Shown here piece by piece: positions 6,674 through 28,593 of a stretch of 36,588 bases of DNA. Made by a program: the position numbers and the translations under genes. Source of the DNA: a bacterium (GTDB taxonomy: Bacteria > Margulisbacteria > Marinamargulisbacteria > SXXA01 > JAHFDB01). The stretch is taken from assembly GCA_023249285.1 (NCBI GenBank), contig JAHFCZ010000003.1, positions 1 through 36,588 of the forward strand. The letters are read 5' to 3'. Within the stretch, counting starts at the first letter, position 1. The number at the start of each line of letters is the position of its first letter. Below the pieces are notes generated by a model, which did not search any database, was not told where the DNA came from, and saw only the letters and a program-made list of their open reading frames with translations.

Positions 6674-6761
6674 TGGCGGAGAGCGAGGGATTCGAACCCC
6701 CGGAGCCTTGCGGCTCAACGGTTTTCAAGACCGCCGCGATCGACCACTCTGCCAGCTCTCC
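6674..6761 (-). tRNA. tRNA-Ser (anticodon UGA), class II with long variable arm and encoded CCA
   Basis: The reverse complement reads GGAGAGC-TG-GCAGAGTGGTCGATCGC-GGCGGT-CTTGAAA-ACCGT-TGAGCCGCAAGGCTCCG-GGGGG-TTCGAAT-CCCTC-GCTCTCC-G-CCA. It has a 7-bp acceptor stem, a 5-bp anticodon stem (one G-U), loop CT-TGA-AA, a canonical TTCGAAT T-loop and a long variable arm. Confidence 0.93.
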
Positions 6762-6878: not shown

Positions 6879-6907
6879 TTGCAAACGCAAAAATTACCTT
6901 GTAAAAT
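6879..6907 (+). promoter_or_regulatory. Candidate sigma70-type promoter of the carA operon (TTGCAA-17 nt-TAAAAT)
   Basis: -35 TTGCAA at 6879-6884, a 17-nt spacer, and -10 TAAAAT at 6902-6907. This is about 55 nt upstream of the carA ATG at 6963 and is the only good hexamer pair in the 200-nt gap. Confidence 0.5.
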
Positions 6908-6962
6908 GCCGGCCATATTTCTCCCGTTTATAATTCGTTATGAAAAGGATTTTTCAGAAGTT

Positions 6963-8162
6963 ATGAGCTCATTGTTTACCTTTCGCGAAAATTTAAATGC
7001 GGTGTTGGTCCTTTCTACTGGGGAGTATTTTTTTGGTGTTGGAGTGGGTCAGTGTGGTTCTGTTGAGGGTGAGATCTGTTTTAATACAGGAATGACCGGA
7101 TATCAAGAAACGTTGACAGATCCCTCGTATGCGAATCAGATCATCACCTTTACGTTTCCCCATATTGGTAATGTTGGGGTTAATCTTGAGGATAATGAGT
7201 GTGAACGTCCGTTTTGCAAAGGATTGGTTATTCGTGAAGATATTACGAATGCCTCTAATTTTCGTGCTACGCAGCATTTGAATGCTTGGTTAGTTCAAAA
7301 TGGTCTAACTGGTATTGCTGGTGTAGATACCCGTGCTTTGACACAGATTGTTCGAGATAAGGGAGCGTGTCACGTTCTTATTTATTTTGGAACAGCAGGA
7401 GAGACAATTGATGTTCAAAAATTGGCGGCATCCATTGTGGATCGGCCAAGTTTGTTAGGGTGCGAGCTGACTCATGTGGTTACGACAGCTTCTCGATATG
7501 TTTGGACTGAGAAGTCTTTTAAGTTGGGTCAAGCTTTTTTTGAGAATATGCGCACGCATTCACATACTGTTGTTGCCTTGGATTATGGGATTAAGCGTAA
7601 TATTTTGAGATTGTTGGCTGACGAAGGTTTTCGTGTGGTGGTGATGCCAGCGACATCGACTTTTGAGGAAATTATGTCGGAGTCCCCAGATGGGGTCTTT
7701 TTGTCTAATGGTCCTGGAGATCCGTTTGAGACTTCTCGATTTACGGCTCCGGTTTTGCGTCAGTTGTTGGCTAAGAAAGTGCCTATTTTTGGAATTTGTA
7801 TGGGCCATCAGTTATTGGCTTTGGCGCAGGGTATGGAAACCGTTAAGATGCATAAGGGCCATCGCGGAACCAATCAACCTGTTCAACATTTAGCCTCTAA
7901 ACGTGTTTATATCACAAGTCAAAACCATGGTTTTTGTGTTTCAACTCAGCATATTTCGGATGATGTTGAGATTACCTATCTCTCTCTTTTTGATCAATCT
8001 GTCGAGGGATTGAAGTCCAAGAATGCACCGGCTTTTTCGGTTCAATTTCACCCAGAAAGTTCTCCTGGCCCTCATGATACCCGGTTTCTGTTTCAAGAAT
8101 TTAAAGCCATGATTTTGGCACATATTAGTATGAAAGAAGGGCTTTATGCCAAAACGAACTGA
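6963..8162 (+). CDS. carA: Carbamoyl-phosphate synthase small (glutaminase) subunit
   Basis: Motifs [16 protein letters not shown], glutamine amidotransferase nucleophile GICMGHQLL, and [10 protein letters not shown] chose the start at ATG 6963 ([21 protein letters not shown]) because homologs begin here and the predicted promoter lies inside the longer TTG-6879 ORF. Confidence 0.9.
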
Positions 8163-11100
8163 TATCAGTAGTATTTTGATTATTGGTGCGGGGCCTATTG
8201 TGATAGGGCAGGCATGTGAGTTTGATTATTCGGGTACACAGGCGTGTAAAATCCTTAAAAATGAAGGCTACCGAGTTATTTTAGTGAATTCAAACCCAGC
8301 GACGATTATGACTGACCCCGAAACAGCGGATGCCATTTATATTGAGCCGATTACGCCGGAATTTGTAGAGAAAATTATTGCAAAAGAACGTCCCGATGCA
8401 CTGCTCCCTACTGTCGGGGGGCAAACCGCACTGAATTGTGCGATGTCATTGCATCAAAGTGGGGTGCTTGATCGATATAAAGTAATCATGATTGGGGCTA
8501 GTCCCCACGCCATTGAAAAGGCTGAAAATCGCAAGCTTTTTAATAAAGCGATGTCTAAAATTGGGCTAGATGTACCTAAGCATGCGGTTGTTAATTCCCT
8601 TGAAGACGCATTAAAAGCCTTGCCTGAGATTGGTCTTCCTGCGGTCATCCGCCCCTCGTTTACGCTTGGTGGAAGTGGTGGTGGAATCGCATACTCAGAA
8701 GAGGAGTTTCGTGGGATTGTATTAAATGGGCTTTCTCTTTCTCCGACCACTGAGGTGGTTATTGATGAATCCATCGTTGGGTGGAAAGAATATGAAATGG
8801 AAGTCATTCGGGATAAAAATGATAATGCAATCATTATTTGTTCCATTGAAAACATTGACCCTATGGGCATCCATACGGGGGATAGTATGACGGTGGCTCC
8901 TGCACTCACTTTGACAGATAAAGAGTACCAAATTATGCGGGATGCTTCGATTGCAGTGCTTCGTGAGATTGGGGTTGAAACGGGTGGCTCTAATGTTCAA
9001 TTTGCAGTGCATCCGCTTACGGGACGTTTGATTGTTATCGAAATGAATCCGCGAGTTTCTCGCTCTTCTGCTTTAGCCTCAAAGGCGACAGGTTATCCCA
9101 TTGCAAAAGTAGCCGCAAAGCTTGCGGTTGGGTACACTTTAGACGAAATTGAGAATGATATTACAAAGGTAACCCCTGCTTCGTTTGAGCCTTCTATAGA
9201 TTATGTTGTCACTAAAATCCCTCGATTTACTTTTGAGAAATTTCCAAAAGCAAGTTCGTTGCTATCTACCCAAATGAAATCAGTGGGTGAGGCGATGTCG
9301 ATTGGGCGATCTTTTTCTGAAAGTTTCCAAAAGGGACTCCGGTCTATTGAGCAAGGTTATTGTGGGCTTAATGAAGTCGAAATGGAAGGGGTGGATCCTG
9401 GGAAATCTTATCTAGAAAATAAAGAGACTATTAAAAAGATATTGTCGCAATTTTCACATCTTCGTTTTTTGCATATTGCGCAGTCTATGCGATTGGGTTG
9501 TCCCCAGGATGATATCCAAGAATTTACTCATTTTGACCCTTGGTTTATTGCGCAAATTCAAGCTATTTTAGTCTTTGAAGAGCGATTGAGAGCTGACGGT
9601 TTTCCCAACTCTAAGGATGGGCTTCTGGCCTACAAAAAAATGGGCTTTTCTGATTTAAGAATTGCTCAGTTGTGTGGAAAATCTGAGAAAGAGGTCAGGC
9701 AAAAAAGGGCGGATTGGAACTTACATCCGGTTTATAAAAAAGTGGATACTTGTGCGGCTGAATTTTCTTGTAATACGGCCTATCTTTACTCTACTTATGA
9801 AGGAAATGCGCTCCAGGATGCGGTGTGTGAAGCTGCGCCGAGTTCTCGTAAGAAAGTGATCATTTTGGGCGGGGGGCCAAATCGCATTGGTCAGGGTATC
9901 GAGTTCGATTATGCCTGCGTGCATGCCGCCTATGCGTTAAAAGAGTTAGGTATTGAGAGTATTATGGTGAATTGTAACCCTGAAACGGTTTCAACTGATT
10001 ACGATACTTCTGATAAACTTTATTTTGAGCCCTTAACTTCTGAAGATGTCTTAGAAATAGTTGCAACCGAACAAAAAAATGGTGAGGTTTTGGGTGTTAT
10101 TGTCCAGTTTGGTGGTCAAACACCTTTAAAGTTAGCCAAAACTCTTCAGGAGGCCGGAGTGCCCATTATTGGTACGCAACCTGATATGTTGGATTTGGCT
10201 GAAGATCGCGAAAGATTCAAAGCGTTACTCGATCAATTAGGGCTTGTTCAACCTAAAAATGATATTTGTTTCACGCTTGAAGATATTCAAGGTGCTGCTC
10301 AACGTGTTGGGTATCCTGTGGTTGTAAGGCCGTCTAATGTTTTGGGTGGGCGTGCGATGGAAGTGCTTCTTTCTGAGCGGGATTTGACAAGTTATATTGA
10401 CCAGCATGGGGCGCATATTTTAGATGGTCCAATTTTGATTGACAAATTTTTAGAAAATGCCGTCGAAATTGATGTCGATGTTCTTTCGGATGGTAATCAA
10501 GTATTTGTTGCCGGGATTATGGAGCAGCTTGAGGAGGCGGGTGTTCATTCAGGGGATTCTGCCTGTTCTATTCCTACTGTTTCATTAAGCCAGGATCAAC
10601 TTCAAGAAATTACTGCAGTGAGTGTAAAGTTAGCTAGGGCCTTACATGTTGTAGGATTGATGAATCTGCAGTGTGCTTATCAGAATGGCCAGCTTTTTAT
10701 CTTGGAAGTCAATCCTAGGGCGTCTAGAACTGTTCCATTTGTGGCCAAAGCGACCGGTAATAGTTTGGCTAAAATTGCGGTCAATCTGATGGTTGGGAGG
10801 TCGTTATCTGAATTTAATTTAAAGAGTGCTACGCCGGAGCATTATTCGGTAAAGGAGGTTGTGTTTCCGTTCGGTAGGTTTGAAAATACAGACAGTGTTT
10901 TGGGTCCTGAGATGAAGTCAACGGGTGAAGTGATGGGTGTCGATACTTCCTTTGGGATGGCCTTTTTGAGAGCTCAGGAAGCTGCTGGTAATAAAATACC
11001 TATGGAAGGCAATGTATTTATAAGTGTCAGGGATCGAGATAAACCATTGATACTTGAAGCTGCTAAACTATTTTCGAAGCGATCCTTTTCTCTTTTTGCA

Positions 11101-11433
11101 ACCAAGGGGACTGCTCAGTATTTGTCCGAGAATGGTCTTCCTGTAACGGTCGTGAATAAAGAAAAAGAAGGAGGTGATCATGCGATTTTACAAATTCTGA
11201 GTGGAAAATTTCAGCTCGTTGTTAATACCACGGCTGGAGATGATATTCCCGAGAGTTTTATGTTGCGACGATCTGCACTAGTCAAACGCATTCCTTATGT
11301 GACGACTGCAGCTGGGTTTAAGGCTTTTGCGACTGCGCTTGATGCGTTTCACGTTTTATCTGAGGTGTCTGTGACGCCTATTCAGGATTGGACTCAATCT
11401 TTCGGAACGTGTGTATTAAATGGTGTTCAATAA
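8146..11433 (+). CDS. carB: Carbamoyl-phosphate synthase large subunit
   Basis: 1095-aa ORF with duplicated ATP-grasp halves ([24 protein letters not shown] and [24 protein letters not shown]) and a C-terminal MGS-like domain. It overlaps carA by 17 nt, and GAAGG lies upstream. Confidence 0.95.
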
Positions 11434-11451
11434 CTTTAAAAGGAGTATTTC

Positions 11452-12564
11452 ATGATTGCTATCGCTGAGTATATTTGGTTTGATGGTGCAACCCCTACAC
11501 GTCGTCCTCGTTGTAAGGCTCGTGTGGTTGATCTTGATCCTGCTAATGTTTCTGTTTCCGATTTTCCTGAATGGGGGTTTGATGGATCTTCCACGAATCA
11601 GGCGCCTGGGAATAGTTCGGACTTGGTCTTGAAACCAGCTTCCTTTTTTAAGGATCCTATTCGAGGTGGAGATAACTTTTTGGTTATCTGTGAAGTGTTT
11701 AATGCCGACGAGACCCCGCATCGAACCAATGCACGGGCGCTTCTTCGGAATGTGTTAGAGGCTGGTGCAAATCAACTTGAAGCTTGTGGTGGATTTGAAC
11801 AAGAATATACGTTGTTTAAAGATGGGCTTCCCTTGGGCTTTACAAAGACAAGTGAGCCTGAGCCTCAGGGCCCTTATTACTGTGGTGTTGGTGGGACCCG
11901 TGCTTTTGGACGAGAAATTGTTGAAGACCATTTGAATGCTTGTTTGGATGCTGAACTTAATATCTATGGCATTAATGCTGAGGTTATGCCTGGACAGTGG
12001 GAATACCAGGTCGGTTATCGTGGGTTTGAGGGTGATCAAAACGATATTTTGAACTTGTGTGATCAACGCGTGGTTGCCAATTGGTTATTAGAGCGTATTG
12101 CAGAAGATCATGGTGTTGAAGTTCGTTTTGATAACAAGCCTAAACAAGGGGATTGGAATGGTGCTGGCTGCCATACTAATTTTTCAACACGAGATATGCG
12201 TAACAAAGAGACTGGACGTGCGACGATTGAAGCAGCAGTTAAAGCGCTTGAGGCAAAGCATCGTGAGCATATTCAGGTCTATGGTGCGGATAATGATCAA
12301 AGACTTACCGGTAAGCATGAAACCTGTTCTTATCGACAGTTCCGTTCTGGGGCTTCTGATCGTGGTGCTTCTATTCGTATTCCTTTAGGCGTTGCTCAGA
12401 AGGGGTATGGTTATATTGAAGATCGTCGTCCAGGGGCTAATTCGGATTCCTACGTGGTTGTGGCAAGATTGTTAGCTACAATTGCAGGTATTTCTCAATT
12501 TGAGGCAGAATTTGAACCTTTTGTGTGTTTGAAATTAGACTTAGAAGCTGTTACAGCTCGGTAG
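11452..12564 (+). CDS. glnII: Glutamine synthetase, type II (eukaryote-like GSII)
   Basis: 370 aa, which is GSII size (GSI is about 470 aa). Motifs AEYIWFDG, PEWGFDGSSTNQA, PQGPYYCGVG, NAEVMPGQWEYQVG, GDWNGAGCHTNFST, RLTGKHET and YIEDRRPGANSD. AAGGAG lies 6 nt upstream of the ATG. Confidence 0.9.
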   Translation: MIAIAEYIWFDGATPTRRPRCKARVVDLDPANVSVSDFPEWGFDGSSTNQAPGNSSDLVLKPASFFKDPIRGGDNFLVICEVFNADETPHRTNARALLRNVLEAGANQLEACGGFEQEYTLFKDGLPLGFTKTSEPEPQGPYYCGVGGTRAFGREIVEDHLNACLDAELNIYGINAEVMPGQWEYQVGYRGFEGDQNDILNLCDQRVVANWLLERIAEDHGVEVRFDNKPKQGDWNGAGCHTNFSTRDMRNKETGRATIEAAVKALEAKHREHIQVYGADNDQRLTGKHETCSYRQFRSGASDRGASIRIPLGVAQKGYGYIEDRRPGANSDSYVVVARLLATIAGISQFEAEFEPFVCLKLDLEAVTAR

Positions 12565-12579
12565 AAGAGGAGAAAATTA

Positions 12580-14121
12580 ATGTCTCAAGCTAAACAAAAT
12601 GTGGGGGATCAGCAGCTTTGGGCTAGTCGATTTAAAAAATCAACAGATCCAGTTGCAAAGGCCTACAGTGATTCGATTGATGTAGATCGTCCGATGTTGT
12701 TTCAAAATATTTGGGGTAATGAAGCACATGTTATTATGCTCGCCAAACAAGGGATTATTAAGGATTCACATTGTCGTGAAATACTGAAGGGGCTACAGCA
12801 GCTCAAGGATGATTTTGTACAGAAGAAATGGGATTTGGCTGCACAAGAAGAAGATGTGCAGATGAATGTTGAACGGTATGTGATTAATACGGTTGGAATA
12901 GAGAACGGAGGTCGAATGCACACCTGTCGTTCTCGGAATGACCAGGTTGTTCTCGATACGAAACTCTATGTGAGGGATCAATTACTTCCGATTATTCAAA
13001 ATGTCATTCGTTTTGTTGAGGAGTTATTGACTCAAGCGGATCAACATACTGAAACTTTAATGCCTGGGTATACGCATACTCAGCATGCACAGCCTATGAC
13101 TTATGCGTATTGGCTGACGCATTATGCGGCGGTATTTTTACGTGATGTTAAGCGGCTTGTTGCCGCCTATCAGGTGACGAATACAAACCCATTGGGTGCA
13201 GGCGCTCTTACCGGCACTTCTTTCCCGATTGACCGTGAATTTACGACTCGTCTTTTAGGGTTTGATTCTGTACAAGAACATAGTTTAGATGCTGTTGGTG
13301 CCAAAGATTTTAATCTTGAAATTTTGAGTGCCTGCTCGATTTTCTTTTCGAGTCTTTCTCGCCTAGCGGATGAAATTATTTATGGGATTACCTATGAATA
13401 TGGAACGATGGTTCTAGATGATGGTTTTTCAATGGGAAGCTCCATGATGCCTCAGAAAAAGAATCCTGGCGTACTTGAATTAGTTCGTGGTCGTACAGGT
13501 AAAATGTATGGCTTGTTAATGCAAATGCTGACCACAATGAAAGGGCTGCCATCGGGGTATAATCGTGATTATCATGAAGATAAAACGACTTTATCAGAAG
13601 GTCTTAAGTTGGTTTACGATACTGTTGAAGTAATGCGTGGGGTGATGAAAACCTTGGTGATTAAACCTGAGCGTATGAAATACTTGGTGGATCAGAATTT
13701 TGCAACAGCGACTGAATTGGCGAACTATTTAGTGAGTAAGCATGATATTCCTTTTCGACTATGTCATCGTATTGTCGGGTTTGTTGTAGGCCAATTGGTT
13801 GAAGAAGGTAAGAACTTTACAGATCGTGAACGGACTAAGGCGTTATTGGCTGAACGAGAAATTTCAATTAGTGATGCTGATTATGATCGTGTCTTGACCC
13901 CAGCTCATGTTATTTTGGAGTATACCTCGCAAGGTGGTGTTGCACCTAAGGAAGTGTCTAGAATGATTGCTAGCATGCGGCAAGAATGTGTTAATTTCCA
14001 GGCGGAGATTGATTTTATTCATGCTCAGCTTAACAAAGCTCGGACTGAGACGAACACTTTAGTTGAGAAAATTTTGAAGCAAAATCTCTCAGTTAATAAT
14101 GCTATCGAAACTATCCTTTAA
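12580..14121 (+). CDS. argH: Argininosuccinate lyase (fumarase/aspartase superfamily)
   Basis: Motifs LWASRF, RSRNDQV, MPGYTHTQHAQP and the signature loop GSSMMPQKKNP. GAGGAG SD. At 513 aa it is somewhat longer than typical ArgH because of a C-terminal helical tail. Confidence 0.88.
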   Translation: MSQAKQNVGDQQLWASRFKKSTDPVAKAYSDSIDVDRPMLFQNIWGNEAHVIMLAKQGIIKDSHCREILKGLQQLKDDFVQKKWDLAAQEEDVQMNVERYVINTVGIENGGRMHTCRSRNDQVVLDTKLYVRDQLLPIIQNVIRFVEELLTQADQHTETLMPGYTHTQHAQPMTYAYWLTHYAAVFLRDVKRLVAAYQVTNTNPLGAGALTGTSFPIDREFTTRLLGFDSVQEHSLDAVGAKDFNLEILSACSIFFSSLSRLADEIIYGITYEYGTMVLDDGFSMGSSMMPQKKNPGVLELVRGRTGKMYGLLMQMLTTMKGLPSGYNRDYHEDKTTLSEGLKLVYDTVEVMRGVMKTLVIKPERMKYLVDQNFATATELANYLVSKHDIPFRLCHRIVGFVVGQLVEEGKNFTDRERTKALLAEREISISDADYDRVLTPAHVILEYTSQGGVAPKEVSRMIASMRQECVNFQAEIDFIHAQLNKARTETNTLVEKILKQNLSVNNAIETIL

Positions 14122-15043
14122 TCATTTGCTTTCGGCTAAAGATGTCCAAAAGCAGGATATTCTCCTGCTTTTGGATGCTGCCGCATCTTTTCATGAGGGG
14201 ATGGCGTCTGATGTTTGTCAATTCTGTGATCTTGCTAAAGGAAAAATATTAGCTTCTTTGTTTTTTGAAGCTAGCACGCGTACTCGATTTTCTTTTGAAT
14301 CCGCGATGTGTCGATTAGGGGGTGCCGTGCTTACCCTTGAAAACGGGGCGTCTTCCTCTGTTAAAAAGGGTGAGACTTTGTCAGATATGGGACGGATTGT
14401 GAGTGGGTATGCAGATATTATTGTGATGAGACACCCTGCTTCTAATAGTGTGAAGGAATTTTCAGAATATTCTCAAGTGCCTGTGATCAATGCTGGAGAT
14501 GGTCCAATGGAGCATCCCTCTCAGTCCTTAGTGGATTTGTATTCTATTTCTTACTTTCAGAAAAAATTGGATGGACTTTCTATCGGATTTGTTGGAGATC
14601 TTAAATTTGGTCGGACAGTTAATTCTCTTGTACAACTTTTGGCTTTTTTCCCTCATCAACAGTTTTATTTTATTTCTCATCCAAGCTTAAAAATTCATCC
14701 TGATAAAGTAAAGCTTCTAAGGGATTTGGGGCATCGCGTGGTTGAGCTTTCTGAATTTGGGGATGTTGTTCCTGAATTGGATGTGTTGTATATGACGCGG
14801 GTTCAGGCTGAGCGTTTTGAGTCTAAAGCACTTTTTGATCAAGTGAAAGATCATTTTGTGCTGACAGAAAAATCTTTGTTGGGTTGTAAGCCAACGCTCA
14901 GTATTTTTCATCCTCTACCCCGGATTAATGAAATCTCGATTGAGGTTGATCAACATCCTGCGGCTAGATATTTTGATCAAGCAAAGTTTGGTGTTTATGT
15001 GCGAATGGCTGTGCTGTGGCATATGCTTGGAAGGGCTATATGA
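14099..15043 (+). CDS. pyrB: Aspartate carbamoyltransferase catalytic chain
   Basis: Carbamoyl-P site FFEASTRTRFSFE, plus HPSQ, and the ATCase-type HPLPR and RVQAERF rather than the OTCase HCLP. The start overlaps the argH end by 23 nt. Confidence 0.87.
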   Translation: MLSKLSFNHLLSAKDVQKQDILLLLDAAASFHEGMASDVCQFCDLAKGKILASLFFEASTRTRFSFESAMCRLGGAVLTLENGASSSVKKGETLSDMGRIVSGYADIIVMRHPASNSVKEFSEYSQVPVINAGDGPMEHPSQSLVDLYSISYFQKKLDGLSIGFVGDLKFGRTVNSLVQLLAFFPHQQFYFISHPSLKIHPDKVKLLRDLGHRVVELSEFGDVVPELDVLYMTRVQAERFESKALFDQVKDHFVLTEKSLLGCKPTLSIFHPLPRINEISIEVDQHPAARYFDQAKFGVYVRMAVLWHMLGRAI

Positions 15044-16266
15044 ATACTGGAGACTCTGTTTTTGTTTGGATTTCAACTTTGTTGGTTTTCTTAATGATTC
15101 CGGGGCTCGCTTTTTTTTATGCGGGTTTGGTGCGTAAGAAGAATATTTTGAGTGTTTTGATGGCATGTTTTGCGACACTTGCTATTGTCAGTCTCCAGTG
15201 GGTTTTGTTTGGCTATTCTCTTGCTTTTGATCCTGCAGAATTTATTCATGGATTTTTGGGAGGGTTTCATTGGGTAGGGCTTTCGGGTGTTCTTCATACG
15301 CCATTCCCAGGGTATTCTGCGACGATTCCCCATTCGTCTTATATGATGTTTCAAATGATGTTTGCGGTGATTACACCCGCTTTGATTATTGGGGCTGTGG
15401 TTGAACGTATGAAGTTTTCAGCATTGTGTGTGTTTATTCTTGCTTGGAGTTTTTTGGTTTATGATCCGATTGCACATTGGGTTTGGGGAATGGGTGGTTG
15501 GTTGCGCCAGTTGGGGGCTTTGGATTTTGCAGGTGGGACAGTTGTTCATATCAGTGCCGGGATTTCTGCGCTTGCTGTGGTTCTGATTTTAGGTAAGCGT
15601 AAAGAATTGGCTACGGCACACCCTTGCAATTTGCCGATGGTGGTTTTAGGTGCTGGTTTGTTATGGCTAGGGTGGTTTGGTTTTAATGCGGGGAGCGCAC
15701 TTGCAATGTCTGATATTGCGATGCAGGCCTTTTTGACGACCCATTCTGCGGCAGCTGCGGCGACACTTTCATATTTGTTATTAGAGTGGGGATTTCAGAA
15801 ACGTCCCACTATATTGGGTGCTGTGACAGGTGCTATTGCAGGCTTGGTAGCGGTTACGCCTGCTGCTGGATTTGTCTCTATCTTTGCAGCAATTTTTGTG
15901 GGTGCGGTGGCGAGTTTGGTTGCCTATTTTATGATTACTGTGGTCAAGAAAAAACTGGGGTATGATGATGCACTAGATGTTTTTGGTGTTCATGGAATGT
16001 GTGGTATTTGGGGGGCATTAGCTACAGGGATCTTTGCTTCGACCCAAATTAATCCGGGTGGTGCTGAGGGGTTATTGTATGGGAACCTGGGATTGTTTAA
16101 GGCGCAAGTCATTGCGGTGATTGTTTCAGTGGGGTATTCATTTTGTGTCACCTTTGTCTTGATAAAGGTGATCGATGCTATAATGGGAATCCGTGTCACA
16201 GAACAAGAAGAGTATCAAGGATTGGATTTGTCTCTTCATCATGAAATTGCTTACAAATTAGATTAG
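15040..16266 (+). CDS. amtB: Ammonium transporter (Amt/MEP family)
   Basis: About 11 hydrophobic segments, with LDFAGGTVVHISAG, WFGFNAGS and VHGMCGIWGAL (twin-His region). I prefer the start at ATG 15040, which forms an ATGA overlap with the pyrB stop, over the upstream ATG at 15016. Confidence 0.92.
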   Translation: MNTGDSVFVWISTLLVFLMIPGLAFFYAGLVRKKNILSVLMACFATLAIVSLQWVLFGYSLAFDPAEFIHGFLGGFHWVGLSGVLHTPFPGYSATIPHSSYMMFQMMFAVITPALIIGAVVERMKFSALCVFILAWSFLVYDPIAHWVWGMGGWLRQLGALDFAGGTVVHISAGISALAVVLILGKRKELATAHPCNLPMVVLGAGLLWLGWFGFNAGSALAMSDIAMQAFLTTHSAAAAATLSYLLLEWGFQKRPTILGAVTGAIAGLVAVTPAAGFVSIFAAIFVGAVASLVAYFMITVVKKKLGYDDALDVFGVHGMCGIWGALATGIFASTQINPGGAEGLLYGNLGLFKAQVIAVIVSVGYSFCVTFVLIKVIDAIMGIRVTEQEEYQGLDLSLHHEIAYKLD

Positions 16267-16276
16267 GAGCTTTTCA

Positions 16277-16615
16277 ATGAAATACATCGTAGCGATTTTA
16301 AGGCCACATCGATTAGATGGGATTCTTGAGAAAATTCAAGAGTTTGGCCTCGTTCACTTTACACTCTCAAACGTGATGGGGCATGGGTTACAGAAAGCAA
16401 CTGAAGAAGTGTACCGCAATGTGCTTGATTCAAAAGATATGCATGAATATGTAAAATTAGAACTTGCTGTTAATGATGTTTCTTTGGAACCGCTTGTTGA
16501 GATCCTCAAGACAGGGTTTGAGGGAGAGCTCGATGATGGAAAGATTTTTGTTTTAGAGCTTGTAAGTGCGATTAGTGTTCGTACTGGGGAGCGTGATGCT
16601 CTTGTTTTAGGCTAA
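16277..16615 (+). CDS. glnK: Nitrogen regulatory protein P-II (GlnK/GlnB family, divergent)
   Basis: 112 aa. It aligns gaplessly with GlnB: T-loop region GHGLQKATEEVYRN, DDGKIFV, VRTGE. It lies directly downstream of amtB, and an AGGAG SD is present. Confidence 0.85.
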   Translation: MKYIVAILRPHRLDGILEKIQEFGLVHFTLSNVMGHGLQKATEEVYRNVLDSKDMHEYVKLELAVNDVSLEPLVEILKTGFEGELDDGKIFVLELVSAISVRTGERDALVLG

Positions 16616-16618
16616 GTC

Positions 16619-17209
16619 ATGGACGAGCTGGGTTCACTCAAGATTGGTGTTTTTGGGTCTTCCGCTAAAGATGAGGTGACAGCTCTTTATACCGCGGCAC
16701 ATCGTGTAGGTGAGTTGATTGCGCAAGGGGGGCATCGCATCATCACGGGCGCATGCAATGGGGTTCCTTTGGTGGCTGTTTTGGGTGCAAAATCAAAGCA
16801 GGGTTTTTCGATAGGGTTTACAGCGGCGACGACGTGCCAGGCTCATGAAACTTTGATGGATACTTCCCCGACTTACTATGATGAGTTGGTTTGTATTCCT
16901 GAGGATTATCTGTATAAAGAAAGCCCTGTGATTTGTAAGAAGTATCGTAATGTTTCTTCAGTAGCCGCTTGCGATGCTGCCATTTTTATTAGTGGGCGAT
17001 GGGGTACTTTGAATGAATTTTCCATTGCTTTTGATACGGGGAAAGTGATAGGAGTGTTGACCGGGATTGGCAAATTTGCAAGTCAAGCTGAACAATTGGT
17101 GACTTTTTTTAATAAAACGAGCTCTGCTCATATTATTTATCAATCGGATCCTGATGTGTTACTTGAAGAAGTTGTGAGGATTGCCGATGAGCGACGCCAA
17201 CGTAGCTGA
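16619..17209 (+). CDS. LOG/TIGR00725-like Rossmann-fold protein (predicted nucleotide-type N-glycosidase)
   Basis: 196 aa. It matches the LOG pattern: N-terminal KIGVFGSS, TGACNGVPL (GGxxGxM-like), an Arg in KKYRNV and ISGRWGTLNEF (PGGxGTxxE-like). The alignment to B. subtilis YvdD is from memory. Confidence 0.7.
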   Translation: MDELGSLKIGVFGSSAKDEVTALYTAAHRVGELIAQGGHRIITGACNGVPLVAVLGAKSKQGFSIGFTAATTCQAHETLMDTSPTYYDELVCIPEDYLYKESPVICKKYRNVSSVAACDAAIFISGRWGTLNEFSIAFDTGKVIGVLTGIGKFASQAEQLVTFFNKTSSAHIIYQSDPDVLLEEVVRIADERRQRS

Positions 17210-17822
17210 ATACAGTATTCTAGATCGGGTCTTTAATATTCCGTTGAATGGAACGGTGAATTCATTGCGGATGGGATCTTATAAAACCAGTCATCATGGA
17301 AATGAGGCTGAGCATGCACTTATCTATTCAGGCGTGATTCATGCTCCTGAATTTCCTATTTTGCTTCGGATTAATTCAGCGTGTTATACCAGTGATATTT
17401 TTCACTCCCAAAGTTGTGATTGTAATTGGCAATTGAAGCAAGCGATGGATCGGATTTCGATTGAGGGTGGGCTGCTTATTTATCATTTTCACCATGAGGG
17501 TAAAGCGCTTGGTTTTACGCATAAACTTAGAATGATGCAGCTTTTAGAGGAGGGTTCTTCTGGGTGGGAAACCTGGCTGAGGCAGCATTACGATACGGAT
17601 ACTCGTCGGTTTTATTCAACGATTAAAATTTTACAGGATTTGGGCATTCAAAAAGTGAGGCTGATGACGAATAATCCCCGTAAACGCGAGGCCCTTGTTA
17701 GAAATGGTATCGATGTTGTTGAAACGATTCCTATTGTAACTCAAGCGCCAGAGCTACGTTTCTATCTGACCTCTAAGCGTCATATACTTGGCCACGAAAT
17801 TCAATTTGATCATGAAATCTAA
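17187..17822 (+). CDS. GTP cyclohydrolase II-fold protein, non-canonical
   Basis: It aligns without gaps to the E. coli RibA core. The Zn cysteines are kept (SACYTSDIFHSQSCDC), as are LMTNNPRK and the Arg of DTDTRRF. However it has NSAC for HSEC, EGKALG for EGRNIG, and Met at the RibA Tyr105 position. ATG 17187 has AGGA 6 nt upstream; the ORF-track start at 17181 is a TTG. Confidence 0.75.
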   Translation: MSDANVAEYSILDRVFNIPLNGTVNSLRMGSYKTSHHGNEAEHALIYSGVIHAPEFPILLRINSACYTSDIFHSQSCDCNWQLKQAMDRISIEGGLLIYHFHHEGKALGFTHKLRMMQLLEEGSSGWETWLRQHYDTDTRRFYSTIKILQDLGIQKVRLMTNNPRKREALVRNGIDVVETIPIVTQAPELRFYLTSKRHILGHEIQFDHEI

Positions 17823-18519
17823 CCCCCCAGATATTCTTTTGTTAGGGTCTGAAGGATCTCTAGGTTCTGAATTGGTTCAGTTGTGGTTAGGGCGTGATTT
17901 AGGTGTTTTTGGTATTGATAAACACCCTGTTTCTCAGCATGATATTGGGTATTATCAAGTAGACTGTGCTTTTCCAGCGAAAGTTCAAGAGGCTATTCAG
18001 GTTGTTACGTTACAGTATCCTAGTATTAAAGCAGTCGTTTCTACTTTGGGTGTTTTTGGTCAAAATGACTTGGAGGTCTACGATTTATCTGCTTTTCAAC
18101 ATTCTGTTCAAGTCAATTTAATGGCTGTTTGTGCTTTTTTTATAGGGTTGGCACAATTTTATGTAAAACAGATGAAACCTTTGAGGTTAGTTGCTGTGGG
18201 TTCTGCCGCAGGAAATGCTGGCAGTCAAGATTTCGGATATGCCGTTTCCAAGGCTGGGTTAAATGGGTTGATCGTCAGTTTATCAAAAGCGTATGCCTCA
18301 AAAGGGATTACCGTGATGGGCGTCAATCCAGGTATTTTTGATTCTTCGATGTCACGGGCTGTTCCGATTGAGCGTCAGGAAAAAACCATTGAAAAAACAC
18401 ACCTTAAACGGATAGGGACTCTTTCTGAAGTGTCAAGTGTGGTTTCGTATGTCGCACTAGAGGCCCCTGATTATCTATCTGGTGCGATTATTCCGGTGAA
18501 TGGTGGGCAGTACACTTAG
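17812..18519 (+). CDS. Short-chain dehydrogenase/reductase (SDR) family oxidoreductase
   Basis: N-terminal glycine motif LLLGSEGSLGSEL, catalytic YAVSKAGLNGL (YxxxK), NPGIFDS and C-terminal PVNGGQ. I prefer the start at ATG 17812, which overlaps the upstream gene by 11 nt. Confidence 0.8.
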   Translation: MKSNPPDILLLGSEGSLGSELVQLWLGRDLGVFGIDKHPVSQHDIGYYQVDCAFPAKVQEAIQVVTLQYPSIKAVVSTLGVFGQNDLEVYDLSAFQHSVQVNLMAVCAFFIGLAQFYVKQMKPLRLVAVGSAAGNAGSQDFGYAVSKAGLNGLIVSLSKAYASKGITVMGVNPGIFDSSMSRAVPIERQEKTIEKTHLKRIGTLSEVSSVVSYVALEAPDYLSGAIIPVNGGQYT

Positions 18520-19561
18520 GCTCTTCTAGGGTGGCTAAGATCTCAGGAATGCAGTACGGGTTTTGGACGACGGCAGTGGCCATTCCAATGAGTGTGGCTC
18601 CTGCTGTTTGGAGTTCCTGAACTTGCTTGGCACTTGAAACTCCGCCAGTGGCAATAATGGGGATTTTAAGGGGGGCGATCAGTGTGGTCATTTCAAGTGT
18701 CCGATTGAAGAGGGATGGGCCCGTGAGGCCCCCTCCACCGATACTGAGTGCATTTTGGGGGAGTCCAATTTCCTGGCATTTTTGGAATTTGGCATTCCCA
18801 AGTGTAATGAACGTGAGCGGGAAGGTGGCGACGATTTCTGCAAGGATGAGCAGGGAGTCGTTAGATAGATCGGGAGAGACTTTAGGGCCCATGATGATGT
18901 CGGGGTACTGTAGCTTGAGATTGCGAAGGAGGTGAGTGAGTAATTCAGGGTGGGCTTGCATGTCTTGTCCATCGGGGGTGTTGGGGCAGCTGATATTGAT
19001 TTCGATAAAATAGGGGCGTATTGCCCACTGAGGATGGGCTTTAAGTGTTTTGATGAGTTGGAGAATGTTGTATTCGTATTCATCCATGCTTTGTCCACCG
19101 ATGCTGAAGCCGATGGGTTTGCTTGCAGGGAATTGAAGTAATTCATTGAGATGTGAAAGGGTATGGCTGAGCCCTTTTCCTGGGAGACCCATGGCATTGA
19201 TCAACCCTTCTCCTTCGCTGGTCCAAATTCGTTTGATCCGGGGACGAGGGTTTCCTGGACGGGGGTCTCGCAGGATGGTTTTGAGGGTGGCTCCGCCTAG
19301 CCCAAATTGTGTCCAAAGACGCACAATTTCGTTGTCGCCTTCAAAGGCTGCCAAAATAAGCGGGGATGGGAATTTGAGGTGATGTAGACTGGTTTCAAGG
19401 TGACCTGGGATTTTGAAGGAGGTAATAAGATGTTCTAGGGGGCCTAGATTTTTAAGGAGTGTATGTCCCAGCAAAATGACCGATTCATAATCTTTGTAAA
19501 AGCGAGAGAGAATTGTACGAGATAATTTGTAGCAAGGGGAGAATATCGTAGCTCTCTTCAT
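18488..19561 (-). CDS. pyrD: Dihydroorotate dehydrogenase-like flavoenzyme (class-2-like scaffold with an active-site Cys)
   Basis: Motifs FPSPLILAAFEGD, DPRPGNPRPRI, GLINAMGLPGKG, EINISCPNTP, GGGLTG and IIATGGV. An N-terminal extension of about 60 aa is present. Its start overlaps the uvrD stop by 4 nt. Confidence 0.78.
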   Translation of the reverse strand: MKRATIFSPCYKLSRTILSRFYKDYESVILLGHTLLKNLGPLEHLITSFKIPGHLETSLHHLKFPSPLILAAFEGDNEIVRLWTQFGLGGATLKTILRDPRPGNPRPRIKRIWTSEGEGLINAMGLPGKGLSHTLSHLNELLQFPASKPIGFSIGGQSMDEYEYNILQLIKTLKAHPQWAIRPYFIEINISCPNTPDGQDMQAHPELLTHLLRNLKLQYPDIIMGPKVSPDLSNDSLLILAEIVATFPLTFITLGNAKFQKCQEIGLPQNALSIGGGGLTGPSLFNRTLEMTTLIAPLKIPIIATGGVSSAKQVQELQTAGATLIGMATAVVQNPYCIPEILATLEEPKCTAHHSPE

Positions 19562-27566: not shown

Positions 27567-28572
27567 GCTTAAGGAGTTGCTCGTTGTGGAGGGTCTCTTT
27601 GAGTTCGTCCAATGTCAGGGTTGCGGTTCCTAGCTTGCCGACGACAATCCCTGCGGCCTCGTTGGCTAAGTGGGTGGCGGTAGGGAGATCTAGGCCTGCA
27701 GCCATGCCCATGGCCAGGACTGAAATGACGGTGTCTCCGGCGCCGGTGATGTCATACACTTCTTTGGCCTTGGTCGGGACATCGCAGCGGCTTCCGTTTT
27801 TATTAAGAATGGTTGCCCCTTTTTCGGAGCGGGTAATGACCAGCCCGTCCAGTTGCAGTTTTTCGATTAATTTTAAGCCTTCCGTGGTGAGCTGTTCTTC
27901 GGAGGTGATTTTTTGGTGTATGGCCAGCTCAAATTCACTGAAATTGGGGGTCAGCACAGTGGCGTGATGGTATTTTTTATAGTCATCCCCCTTTGGGTCA
28001 ATGACGATCGGAATGTGGTGTGACCGTCCAAATTTAATTAGGGTTTGTAGCAATTTTGGGGTAATCGTGCCCTTCAGATAATCCGAAATCACAATGCCAT
28101 GGAGGTTGCTGGGGAAGAGCTTGAGCTTGTAGAGAAACTGGGATTCGAGGGCTTCGGATAAGGTGCTTACATCCTCACGGTCCACGCGGGCGACTTGTTG
28201 ATGGTGGGCAATGATTCTGGATTTTAGGGTGGTGGGTCGTTCGGGGTCTTTGAGAATGTTGTCGGCTGAGATTTTGGCTTTGTGAAGTTCTTGAATGAGT
28301 TTGTTGCCGGTGCTATCTGCGCCGATGACGCCTAAAAGTTGGGGGTTGCCACCCAGGGTTTTGATATTGTGGGCAACGTTTGCGGCACCGCCTGGGACGA
28401 GCTCAGTACGATTGACCTTACAGATAGGGACGGGTGCTTCAGGCGAAATCCGGGTGACGGTGCACCAGTGAAATTCGTCGAGCATTACATCACCTGCAAC
28501 GAGTAAGTTGAGGCCAGGAAATTTGTCTAAACAGGCGAGATTGTGTGCCGTTGGGGTCGTGGAATCGGTCAT
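27547..28572 (-). CDS. rfaE1: D-glycero-beta-D-manno-heptose 7-phosphate kinase (HldE domain I, PfkB family)
   Basis: Motifs LVAGDVMLDEF, RISPEAPVP, GGAANVAHN and the PfkB C-terminal motif DITGAGDT. The start is taken at ATG 28572 (MTDSTT); the ORF-track start at 28590 is a TTG. Confidence 0.85.
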   Translation of the reverse strand: MTDSTTPTAHNLACLDKFPGLNLLVAGDVMLDEFHWCTVTRISPEAPVPICKVNRTELVPGGAANVAHNIKTLGGNPQLLGVIGADSTGNKLIQELHKAKISADNILKDPERPTTLKSRIIAHHQQVARVDREDVSTLSEALESQFLYKLKLFPSNLHGIVISDYLKGTITPKLLQTLIKFGRSHHIPIVIDPKGDDYKKYHHATVLTPNFSEFELAIHQKITSEEQLTTEGLKLIEKLQLDGLVITRSEKGATILNKNGSRCDVPTKAKEVYDITGAGDTVISVLAMGMAAGLDLPTATHLANEAAGIVVGKLGTATLTLDELKETLHNEQLLKHEPPVS

Positions 28573-28576
28573 GGTG

Positions 28577-28585
28577 TGGTAGTAT
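28577..28585 (+). promoter_or_regulatory. Extended -10 box TGgTAGTAT (plus strand), 8 nt upstream of ATG 28594
   Basis: The sequence tggtagtat-accaactt-ATG was read directly. Its hexamer overlaps the opposite-strand -10 box by 5 nt. Confidence 0.35.
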
Positions 28586-28589
28586 ACCA
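28581..28589 (-). promoter_or_regulatory. Extended -10 box TGgTATACT (minus strand), 8 nt upstream of the rfaE1 ATG
   Basis: The reverse complement of 28581-28589 reads TGGTATACT. It is followed by accacacc and then ATG at 28572. Confidence 0.4.
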
Positions 28590-28593
28590 ACTT

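Follow-up and report, generated by a model that had tools for sequence, protein, structure and literature searches.

What do a divergent relative of GTP cyclohydrolase II (GCHII), a short-chain dehydrogenase/reductase (SDR) and a protein of SLOG cluster 4 (SLOG4 from here on) do together at the very end of a bacterial operon? The question is raised by a 36,588-nucleotide stretch of a Marinamargulisbacteria genome (contig JAHFCZ010000003.1 of assembly GCA_023249285.1), which at its full length we call the window, and in which a compact operon of ten genes on the plus strand, carA-carB-glnII-argH-pyrB-amtB-glnK-SLOG4-GCHII-SDR, closes with these three, our cassette. The answer that we favour, at a rough probability of 0.4, is that the cassette may be a conserved module of pyrimidine-nucleotide metabolism, which would combine ring opening with a redox step in the manner of the fungal URC (uracil catabolism) route without containing a relative of its enzyme Urc1p. 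The broader proposition, that the cassette processes a pyrimidine nucleotide and serves neither riboflavin synthesis nor ammonium uptake, is probably correct, because the cassette keeps company with pyrimidine-nucleotide genes in many bacteria and archaea that have not been cultivated. Its members in the window are as follows.

16619-17209, plus strand: SLOG cluster-4 protein of 196 amino acids (aa); PF18306; LOG-like Rossmannoid fold; Arg110 (KYRN) and Glu133 (GRWGTLNE)
17187-17822, plus strand: divergent GCHII-fold enzyme of 211 aa; PF00925; signatures RINSACYT and IYHFHHEG; Met at the position of Tyr105
17812-18519, plus strand: SDR of 235 aa; adh_short/adh_short_C2; GxxGxLG motif; Asp at the end of beta-2; Asn, Ser and YxxxK

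The junctions are as tight as an initial annotation of this DNA had described them: the stop of glnK at 16615 is separated by three nucleotides from the SLOG4 ATG at 16619, the SLOG4 stop at 17209 lies beyond the ATG of the GCHII-like gene at 17187 (a 23-nucleotide overlap), and the GCHII-like stop at 17822 lies beyond the SDR ATG at 17812 (an 11-nucleotide overlap).

Which genes does the cassette travel with?

Genomic contexts were gathered by exact-protein look-ups, by a scan of a genome collection with the SLOG4 alignment (79 genomes) and by a scan of metagenomes for the GCHII motif (26 loci), and neighbouring genes were classified by phmmer against reference proteins. The trio or its core was recovered from at least 38 non-redundant loci, so that the co-conservation on which the initial annotation had staked its idea is real and not a matter of chance. 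Of 38 such loci in which the GCHII-like gene is present, 30 have an orthologous SDR gene next to it, and the type-2 orotidine 5'-monophosphate (OMP) decarboxylase gene (pyrF2) is found in 16, SLOG4 in 15, pyrB in nine and argH in five; further partners that recur are carAB, HD or HAD nucleotidases, dTMP kinase (tmk) and uridine kinase (udk). Several of these associations have been sealed by fusion, namely GCHII-SDR (P0172), GCHII-OMP decarboxylase (P0191) and HD_3-GCHII, where HD_3 is a YfbR-like nucleotidase domain (P0173 and four others). We regard the GCHII-like enzyme and the SDR, found together in those 30 loci and also fused, as the core and as the obligatory part of our proposal, with SLOG4 as a frequent third member. 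Four independent partners (PyrB, PyrF2, Tmk and Udk), two types of nucleotidase and these Rosetta-stone fusions are most economically explained if a pyrimidine nucleotide is the substrate of the GCHII-like/SDR pair.

The order of genes varies from one lineage to another. The window shares the architecture (carAB)-argH-pyrB-[SLOG4]-GCHII-SDR with Margulisbacteria, UBP8 and alphaproteobacterial metagenome-assembled genomes (MAGs), the linkage to carAB-argH-pyrB being seen in L003, L092 and L098 as well, and further metagenome contigs of the argH-pyrB type lack SLOG4 and carry a convergent HD_3 gene. Filamentous cyanobacteria have SLOG4-[FAD mono-oxygenase]-GCHII-pyrF2-SDR-[bestrophin or MFS], MFS standing for a major facilitator superfamily exporter; HD_3-GCHII-SDR-MFS occurs in one Gammaproteobacteria MAG and two unassigned metagenome contigs; and a GCHII-pyrF2-SDR-methyltransferase order exists too, some of the cassette methyltransferases matching N-methyltransferase families such as HemK/PrmA/MTS. 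A Nanoarchaeote has GCHII-SDR-tmk-pyrF2, with a tmk product that passes TIGR00041, a Moranbacterium has uridine kinase near its cassette, and in L004 the bare trio stands among RHS and insertion-sequence (IS) genes. The OMP decarboxylases that accompany the cassette are convincing members of their own family, since they pass TIGR02127 (pyrF_sub2) at 248-252 bits against a cut-off of 110.6, and in 15 of them nearly all of the residues whose conservation is 90% or more in the PyrF of pyr operons are kept, the Lys and the Asp-x-Lys-Arg-x-Asp motif among them.

The initial annotation had seen in the amtB-glnK pair a sign of nitrogen salvage beside ammonium uptake, and this part of the idea has to be given up: the window's own lineage is the only one in which amtB-glnK separates pyrB from SLOG4, and the pair is absent from that position in L003, L001, L015, L016 and L092, while the neighbours that are conserved are carAB, pyrB and pyrF. 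In a Margulisbacteria locus a gap of three nucleotides lies between pyrB and SLOG4, and comparison with it (L003 3670-4609 against 14099-16619 of the window) gives the impression that amtB-glnK has been inserted between the two genes, and that carAB has moved from a place downstream of the SDR gene to the front of the operon in the window. A GlnII-type glutamine synthetase gene adjoins the cassette in the Margulisbacteria locus as well.

Some individual loci carry conspicuous extra genes. In four of them (L104 4257-9251, L108 8092-14594, L113 4698-9637 and L124 10196-14660) a GCHII-OMP decarboxylase-SDR-methyltransferase set is flanked convergently by proteins of roughly 580 and 1,650 aa, which in L124 receive a weak TCAD9-domain and a faint HATPase_c assignment and recall NTP-dependent conflict systems. 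In a Nanoarchaeota MAG (GCA_023144115.1, L118 1130-7557) genes for a radical-SAM protein, a methyltransferase and a B12-binding radical-SAM protein lie directly upstream of GCHII-SDR-tmk-pyrF2, a gene set which suggests that this DPANN archaeon has a pathway for modified nucleotides. On a single JGI contig (P0069, minus strand 9750-16199) a urea-carboxylase-like protein of roughly 1,290 aa, with biotin-carboxylase, CT_A_B/CT_C_D and biotinyl domains, and AllF/AllG/AllH-like genes are found about 5 kb from an argH-pyrB-SLOG4-GCHII-SDR block and on the strand opposite to it.

As far as the literature that we searched shows, the GCHII-like family and its associations are undescribed: we found no paper linking SLOG, PF18306 or TIGR00725 with GCHII, or GCHII with OMP decarboxylase, and the cassette is not mentioned in Kaur et al. 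2020.

Is the GCHII-like protein simply RibA?

Judged from its sequence, it is a member of a discrete family and not a canonical RibA. The protein shares fold and Pfam family with RibA and RibBA (such as E. coli 2bz0 and M. tuberculosis 4i14 in the PDB), and the GTP_cyclohydro2 match that the initial annotation had anticipated is clear (PF00925, 131 bits), with solved RibA structures matching at 98-139 bits. It nevertheless falls below every NCBIfam cut-off for RibA or RibBA, scoring 138 bits against 148 for NF001591 and 130 against 206 for TIGR00505, and staying far under the RibBA models. In the alignment with 2bz0 the features picked out beforehand are all visible, namely the zinc ligands Cys54, Cys65 and Cys67, Arg128, KLRMM for KIRAY (which puts Met at Tyr105), NSAC for HSEC and EGKALG for EGRNIG; the residues align as had been claimed, and the alignment is interrupted by gaps of single residues where it had been called gapless.

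A word-indexed search gave 51 relatives, and a search with the family profile 383 at E <= 1e-20; in an exhaustive search of 50%-identity representatives only 21 were better than 1e-30, beyond which the RibA/RibBA continuum begins. The signatures RINSAC[YF]T[SG]D...CDCxWQL and IYH[FL]HHEG mark the family. When the alignment columns of its 51 members were set against those of about 126 canonical-like sequences, Arg49, Ser52, Cys54/65/67, Thr56, Asp58, Gln70, Tyr88, Glu92-Gly93, Lys101, Asp126, Arg128, Thr/Ser149-Asn150-Asn151 and Lys154 proved to be kept, the Cys triad that binds zinc, Arg128, Lys154 and the TNN motif being invariant. Against this, H51N, L55Y/F and L89H are substitutions common to the whole family, 50 of the 51 carry E53A, and Arg94, Gln108, Asp113, Thr114, Asn118 and Gly122, which are 85-97% conserved in the canonical-like set, are lost or variable; the window protein itself has K94, M105, L108, S113, G114 and W118 at positions that canonical RibA conserves. 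In a neighbour-joining tree, which is indicative only, the 51 sequences fall inside a clade of 73 that excludes most of the sampled canonical-like sequences, but the clade boundary is recovered in 3 of 20 bootstrap replicates, which is weak, and seven motif-bearing sequences lie outside it.

The initial annotation had treated the loss of Tyr105 as the key change, and here the family as a whole speaks otherwise. Tyr is present at this position in 29 of the 51 members, the cyanobacterial subgroup included, whereas the window protein and its counterparts in Margulisbacteria, UBP8 and alphaproteobacterial MAGs have Met, Leu, Ile or Phe instead, with Met or Leu restricted to part of the pyrB-linked members; loss of Tyr105 is thus ruled out as the change that defines the family. 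A Tyr-to-Met GCHII paralogue, SCO6655 of Streptomyces coelicolor, was reportedly described by Spoonamore and colleagues in 2006 as yielding the formamidopyrimidine product FAPy. The window protein has Met at the same position as SCO6655, whereas in the cassette family Met is no common trait and many further substitutions are found.

Public records name these relatives 'GTP cyclohydrolase II (RibA)' or 'RibBA', and in cyanobacteria, which are expected to have a housekeeping ribBA too, the GCHII-like gene is recorded as an extra 'putative' copy. Riboflavin genes were not recognised in any of the neighbourhoods listed or scanned, although no rib-specific search was run across all loci. The view that this protein is non-canonical, which the initial annotation had already put forward, has therefore gained ground, given the scores below the RibA cut-offs, the loss of several canonical residues and the lack of riboflavin neighbours in the loci inspected.

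The family is no offshoot of Urc1p either. Against the Urc1p type, of which we take PRK07198 and the PDB entries 7ej3 and 7eev to be the bacterial representatives, the protein scores only 33 bits (PRK07198, cut-off 403) and 38 bits (7ej3), in comparison with about 130-139 bits for RibA/RibBA. Urc1p-type proteins are about 420 aa long with an N-terminal extension, whereas those of the cassette have about 210, and the zinc loop reads RVHDECNG in the former and RINSACYT in the latter.

What do the SDR and SLOG4 bring to the cassette?

The SDR matches adh_short and adh_short_C2 at 63 and 77 bits, as had also been anticipated, with alignments that begin only at about residue 50. It reaches the cut-off of no curated model, the best match being a FabG equivalog at 94 bits against a cut-off of 298, and its nearest PDB sequences are FabG-type ketoreductases at about 80 bits; there is also a weak match, 62 bits, to TmpR, a dihydropteridine/dihydrofolate reductase model. 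Its VNL, GSAAG and YAVSK motifs align with the Asn, Ser, Tyr and Lys of FabG and are conserved in 30 family members. Across the family the classical TGxxxGxG is replaced by LGxxGxLG, so that the GSEGSLGS motif that had been singled out as unusual in the window is real and is its version of a family-wide GxxGxLG variant. The Asp at the end of beta-2 is conserved in the family, and as an Asp in this position is an established mark of NAD(H) preference, the SDR is predicted to be of the NAD type.

The third protein had been called LOG-like, with a LOG catalytic Arg and Glu. The residues have stood up well: KKYRNV (KYRN) and GRWGTLNE (GRWGT-NE) are invariant in an alignment of 42 homologues. The family assignment has shifted, since the protein belongs to SLOG cluster 4 (PF18306, 93 bits against a gathering score of 26.3) and has no match to the LOG family PF03641 (Lysine_decarbox) at E <= 0.01, which had been the expected hit, and scores 17 bits against a cut-off of 96 for TIGR00730. 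PF18306 was found in all 120 of the matches listed among 185 homologues at E <= 1e-5. An AlphaFold2 model with a pLDDT (predicted local distance difference test) score of 95.6 has as its best Foldseek matches in the PDB TM1055, cyanobacterial and algal molybdenum cofactor (Moco) binding or carrier proteins, and then LOG enzymes and DprA. With LOG enzymes and PpnN it shares the Rossmannoid SLOG fold (Foldseek TM about 0.7 to LOG) and an Arg placed 16 residues before G-x-x-G-T-x-x-E, Arg110 being at the same distance upstream of the motif as in PpnN. It differs from LOG in having SGRWGTLNE, hence SGR-W for PGG, where LOG has PGGxGTxxE, and TGACxG for the GGGxxG loop. In fold it is equally close to the non-enzymatic Moco carrier or binding proteins (6y01 and 2iz5) and to TM1055, a protein of unknown function. 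A profile alignment by hhalign with E. coli PpnN lays GRWGTLNE on PGGVGTAEE and Glu133 on the motif Glu, although the match is weak (E = 0.03). The Arg/Glu pair suggests glycosidase activity and goes no further than that, because the PpnN match is weak and the Moco-binding protein 6y01 has a similar RN...GTLSE.

SLOG4 is, in addition, a pyrimidine-operon protein in its own right. Relatives that are 33-47% identical to it and keep its invariant residues come mainly from the Candidate Phyla Radiation (CPR), DPANN and gammaproteobacterial MAGs, and type-2 pyrF lies within 1.5 kb of a SLOG4-family gene in 42 of the 79 genomes, often translationally coupled to it inside complete pyr operons with pyrE, pyrC, pyrD, pyrB and carAB (for example, L011 7962-12020, L044 9345-19219 and L088). 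No GCHII-like gene was detected in the CPR and DPANN pyr operons that hold SLOG4 relatives, and in the SLOG4 loci that lack pyr genes no other conserved partner was found. The initial annotation's picture of this protein as the obligatory downstream glycosidase finds no support in these contexts: SLOG4 is optional, being present in 15 of the 38 loci, and its relatives sit beside pyrF in pyr operons in which no GCHII-like gene was detected, so a substrate or ligand specific to the GCHII-like product is unlikely. Where it is linked to pyrF, SLOG cluster 4 gives the impression of an accessory factor in pyrimidine biosynthesis or homeostasis that has gone unrecognised.

How might the proposed pathway work?

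We propose that the GCHII-fold enzyme, which retains the zinc site of RibA and its phosphate-handling residues (Arg49, Lys101, Asp126, Arg128, Thr149-Asn151 and Lys154), would open the ring of a nucleotide hydrolytically. Because several canonical RibA residues beside the zinc ligands and within positions 105-122 have been lost, this would be a nucleotide other than GTP, most plausibly one of the uridine type supplied by the neighbouring de novo genes. The SDR would perform a coupled redox step on a carbonyl or enoyl product, and SLOG4, by virtue of its LOG-like Arg/Glu pair, might remove ribose 5-phosphate, while elsewhere the phosphate would be taken off by an HD or HAD phosphatase. By descent the ring-opening enzyme would have branched off separately, from RibA and not from Urc1p. 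The purpose is more likely to be the turnover of de novo pyrimidines or an outlet for their overflow, or else the production of a metabolite derived from uridine 5'-monophosphate (UMP), than ammonium-linked nitrogen scavenging.

COG3236 (YbiA) is an N-glycosidase of riboflavin intermediates that is genetically associated with a GCHII enzyme and forms a damage-control side branch of riboflavin synthesis; it offers a precedent for taking ribose phosphate off a ring-opened nucleotide, and its fold is unrelated to that of SLOG4. The URC route involves a GCHII-like protein, ribosylurea and 3-hydroxypropionate, an SDR (Urc8p) and a step that cleaves ribosyl-urea, and its steps are still uncharacterised (PMC7530994). 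The likeness lies in a GCHII fold that works outside riboflavin synthesis and is tied to pyrimidines, and in the same set of enzyme types (an SDR, a candidate for N-ribosyl cleavage and phosphatases). The difference lies in the setting, since the cassette's neighbours are biosynthetic pyr genes; URC4 (DUF1688), upp and urea amidolyase were not noted beside the cassettes inspected, with no targeted search made over all loci. The URC-like pyrimidine module first suggested for the window has thus kept its pyrimidine side, with pyrB, type-2 pyrF, tmk, udk, the GCHII-OMP decarboxylase fusion and the types of partner enzyme in its favour, and has lost any kinship with Urc1p (33 and 38 bits).

Taken to its full extent, the proposal is that the RINSAC/YHFHHEG proteins form a third functional class of the GCHII fold that opens the ring of a pyrimidine nucleotide, that together with an NAD-dependent SDR and SLOG4 or an HD/HAD enzyme they make up an unrecognised nucleotide-level pyrimidine pathway wired into de novo pyrimidine operons, and that this pathway occurs widely among bacteria and archaea that have not been cultivated (Margulisbacteria, UBP8, CPR, DPANN and filamentous cyanobacteria). 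We put this joint claim forward tentatively, as something that could well turn out to be otherwise.

What else could the cassette be?

Several points weigh against the pyrimidine reading. The case for a pyrimidine substrate is drawn solely from the neighbourhood and from the loss of residues that canonical enzymes conserve, the GCHII-like family resembles RibA (about 130-139 bits) far more than it does the Urc1 type (33-38), and GTP is still a possible substrate because all of the residues for GTP phosphate and zinc are kept. Some cassettes come with N-methyltransferases, exporters (MFS or bestrophin), FAD mono-oxygenases or radical-SAM proteins, or lie beside TCAD9 and giant-ATPase genes, which looks like the production of a secondary metabolite or signal and not like catabolism. 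SLOG4 may act on UMP or OMP itself or just bind a ligand, because its relatives adjoin pyrF where no GCHII-like gene is detected and the Moco carriers are equally close in fold, and an NAD-type SDR would be unexpected in the role of an NADPH-type malonic-semialdehyde reductase.

The main rival starts from the similarity to RibA/RibBA, which is the highest that the GCHII-like protein has, and from the invariance of the zinc triad, Arg128, Lys154 and the TNN motif: RibA-type chemistry on GTP could lead to an aminopyrimidine or pterin-type product other than riboflavin, with the Met/Leu-105 members stopping at FAPy, the SDR reducing the ribosylamino side chain or a pterin-like ring, and SLOG4 serving as a COG3236-like N-glycosidase or a binding protein resembling the Moco carriers. 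HD/HAD phosphatases, which recur beside or fused to the GCHII-like enzyme, would fit this branch, riboflavin synthesis also needing a phosphatase, and so would the HemK/PrmA/MTS-type N-methyltransferases and exporters of some cassettes, the weak TmpR match (62 bits) and the pterin (Moco) carriers among the top fold matches of SLOG4. We consider it rather unlikely, since it leaves unexplained the recurrent, coupled and even fused type-2 OMP decarboxylase and the pyrB, tmk and udk neighbours, Arg94 and the canonical residues of the 105-122 segment are not conserved, and no deaminase, RibD, RibH or FolB-type partner is seen in the cassettes. That the protein is an ordinary housekeeping RibA with unrelated SLOG4 and SDR neighbours would agree with the strong PF00925 match and the names in public records; it is nonetheless the most improbable of the explanations considered here, given the scores below the NCBIfam RibA cut-offs, the absence of Tyr105 in the window and the unconserved Arg94, Gln108, Asp113, Thr114 and Asn118 of the family, the loci inspected without riboflavin-gene neighbours, the tight coupling or fusion to an SDR, an OMP decarboxylase or an HD domain, and the extra 'putative' copy in cyanobacteria.

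Two further explanations were weighed. In the window and its relatives the cassette is bounded by pyrB on one side and by a convergent pyrD-like gene or carAB on the other, with pyrC, pyrE and pyrF not within 10 kb, and the GCHII reaction is one in which a ring is opened hydrolytically with the help of zinc; the cassette might bypass the missing de novo steps to UMP, with the GCHII-fold enzyme as an analogue of dihydroorotase, SLOG4 as an analogue for phosphoribosyl transfer and the SDR as a helper in redox or decarboxylation. This is very improbable, as SLOG4 relatives share operons with pyrE, pyrC, pyrD and pyrF (L011, L044 and L088), the GCHII-like and SDR genes co-occur with a PyrF that appears to be catalytically intact, to which the GCHII-like domain is also fused, the cassette stands alone among RHS/IS genes in L004 and is found in cyanobacteria, which are expected to have the canonical pyrimidine pathway, and a dihydroorotase analogue would have no need of the nucleotide-phosphate residues of RibA that have been kept. 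Replacement of PyrC, PyrE or PyrF is in consequence largely rejected, the cassette members co-occurring with those genes elsewhere. The other explanation is a nucleotide-derived signal or antimetabolite for biological conflict, in which SLOG4 would be a sensor or a base-releasing enzyme and PyrF and PyrB would be copies for precursor supply or self-resistance. SLOG domains have been predicted to be signal generators or sensors in conflict systems (PMC6459960, PMC7159879), the L104, L108, L113 and L124 cassettes lie beside a TCAD9-domain protein and a HATPase_c protein of roughly 1,650 aa, and the cyanobacterial clusters include exporters and tailoring enzymes. We find it improbable all the same: the window cassette is embedded in a housekeeping nitrogen/arginine/pyrimidine operon that has no conflict-system gene, and the GCHII-OMP decarboxylase fusion points to a pathway enzyme and not to a resistance copy. 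Membership of the window cassette in a defence system was rejected, PADLOC giving only a 22-bit PsyrA (SLOG) match.

What else lies in the window?

Apart from the cassette, the following features of the window bear on the operon and its surroundings.

6677-6761, minus strand: tRNA gene, in the 548-nucleotide gap upstream of carA (Rfam)
6879-14121, plus strand: genes at the head of the operon: carA, carB, GlnII-type glutamine synthetase, argH (Pfam; NCBIfam)
11452-12564, plus strand: GlnII-type glutamine synthetase, short at 370 aa (NCBIfam GlnII 426 bits against a cut-off of 500)
14099-15043, plus strand: pyrB, aspartate carbamoyltransferase (TIGR00670, 308 bits against a cut-off of 237)
15016-16615, plus strand: amtB and glnK, between pyrB and SLOG4 (Pfam and NCBIfam)
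18488-19561, minus strand: divergent dihydroorotate-dehydrogenase-like (pyrD-like) gene (PF01180, 150 bits)
28543-30969, plus strand: open reading frame of 808 aa without a Pfam match at E <= 0.001

The argH product scores 497 bits against an NCBIfam cut-off of 279. The pyrD-like gene is convergent with the SDR gene and overlaps its 3' end by 32 nucleotides, an arrangement that is also present in the UBP8 MAG L001, and its product falls below every NCBIfam cut-off for dihydroorotate dehydrogenases. By alignment with PDB sequences it is nearer to the class-2 than to the class-1 enzymes, yet it carries an NISCPNTP active-site motif whose Cys presumably occupies the position of the class-1 catalytic base. 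The operon shows carAB and pyrB, with pyrD beside it, and pyrC, pyrE and pyrF were not found within 10 kb of the cassette in the window and its relatives. An Rfam scan of the window gave no riboswitch or leader in the operon, the tRNA gene being its sole match, and promoter and terminator scans were near shuffle expectation.

Why does it matter?

If the family makes no riboflavin precursor, many MAGs, those of CPR and DPANN organisms among them, are being credited too readily with riboflavin prototrophy. If it is active on pyrimidine nucleotides, it would represent a new enzymatic route, a bacterial and archaeal counterpart of the fungal URC pathway, the steps of which are themselves unresolved (PMC7530994). 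The almost constant companionship of SLOG cluster 4 and type-2 pyrF in minimal genomes, for its part, points to an unrecognised part of pyrimidine biosynthesis or homeostasis.

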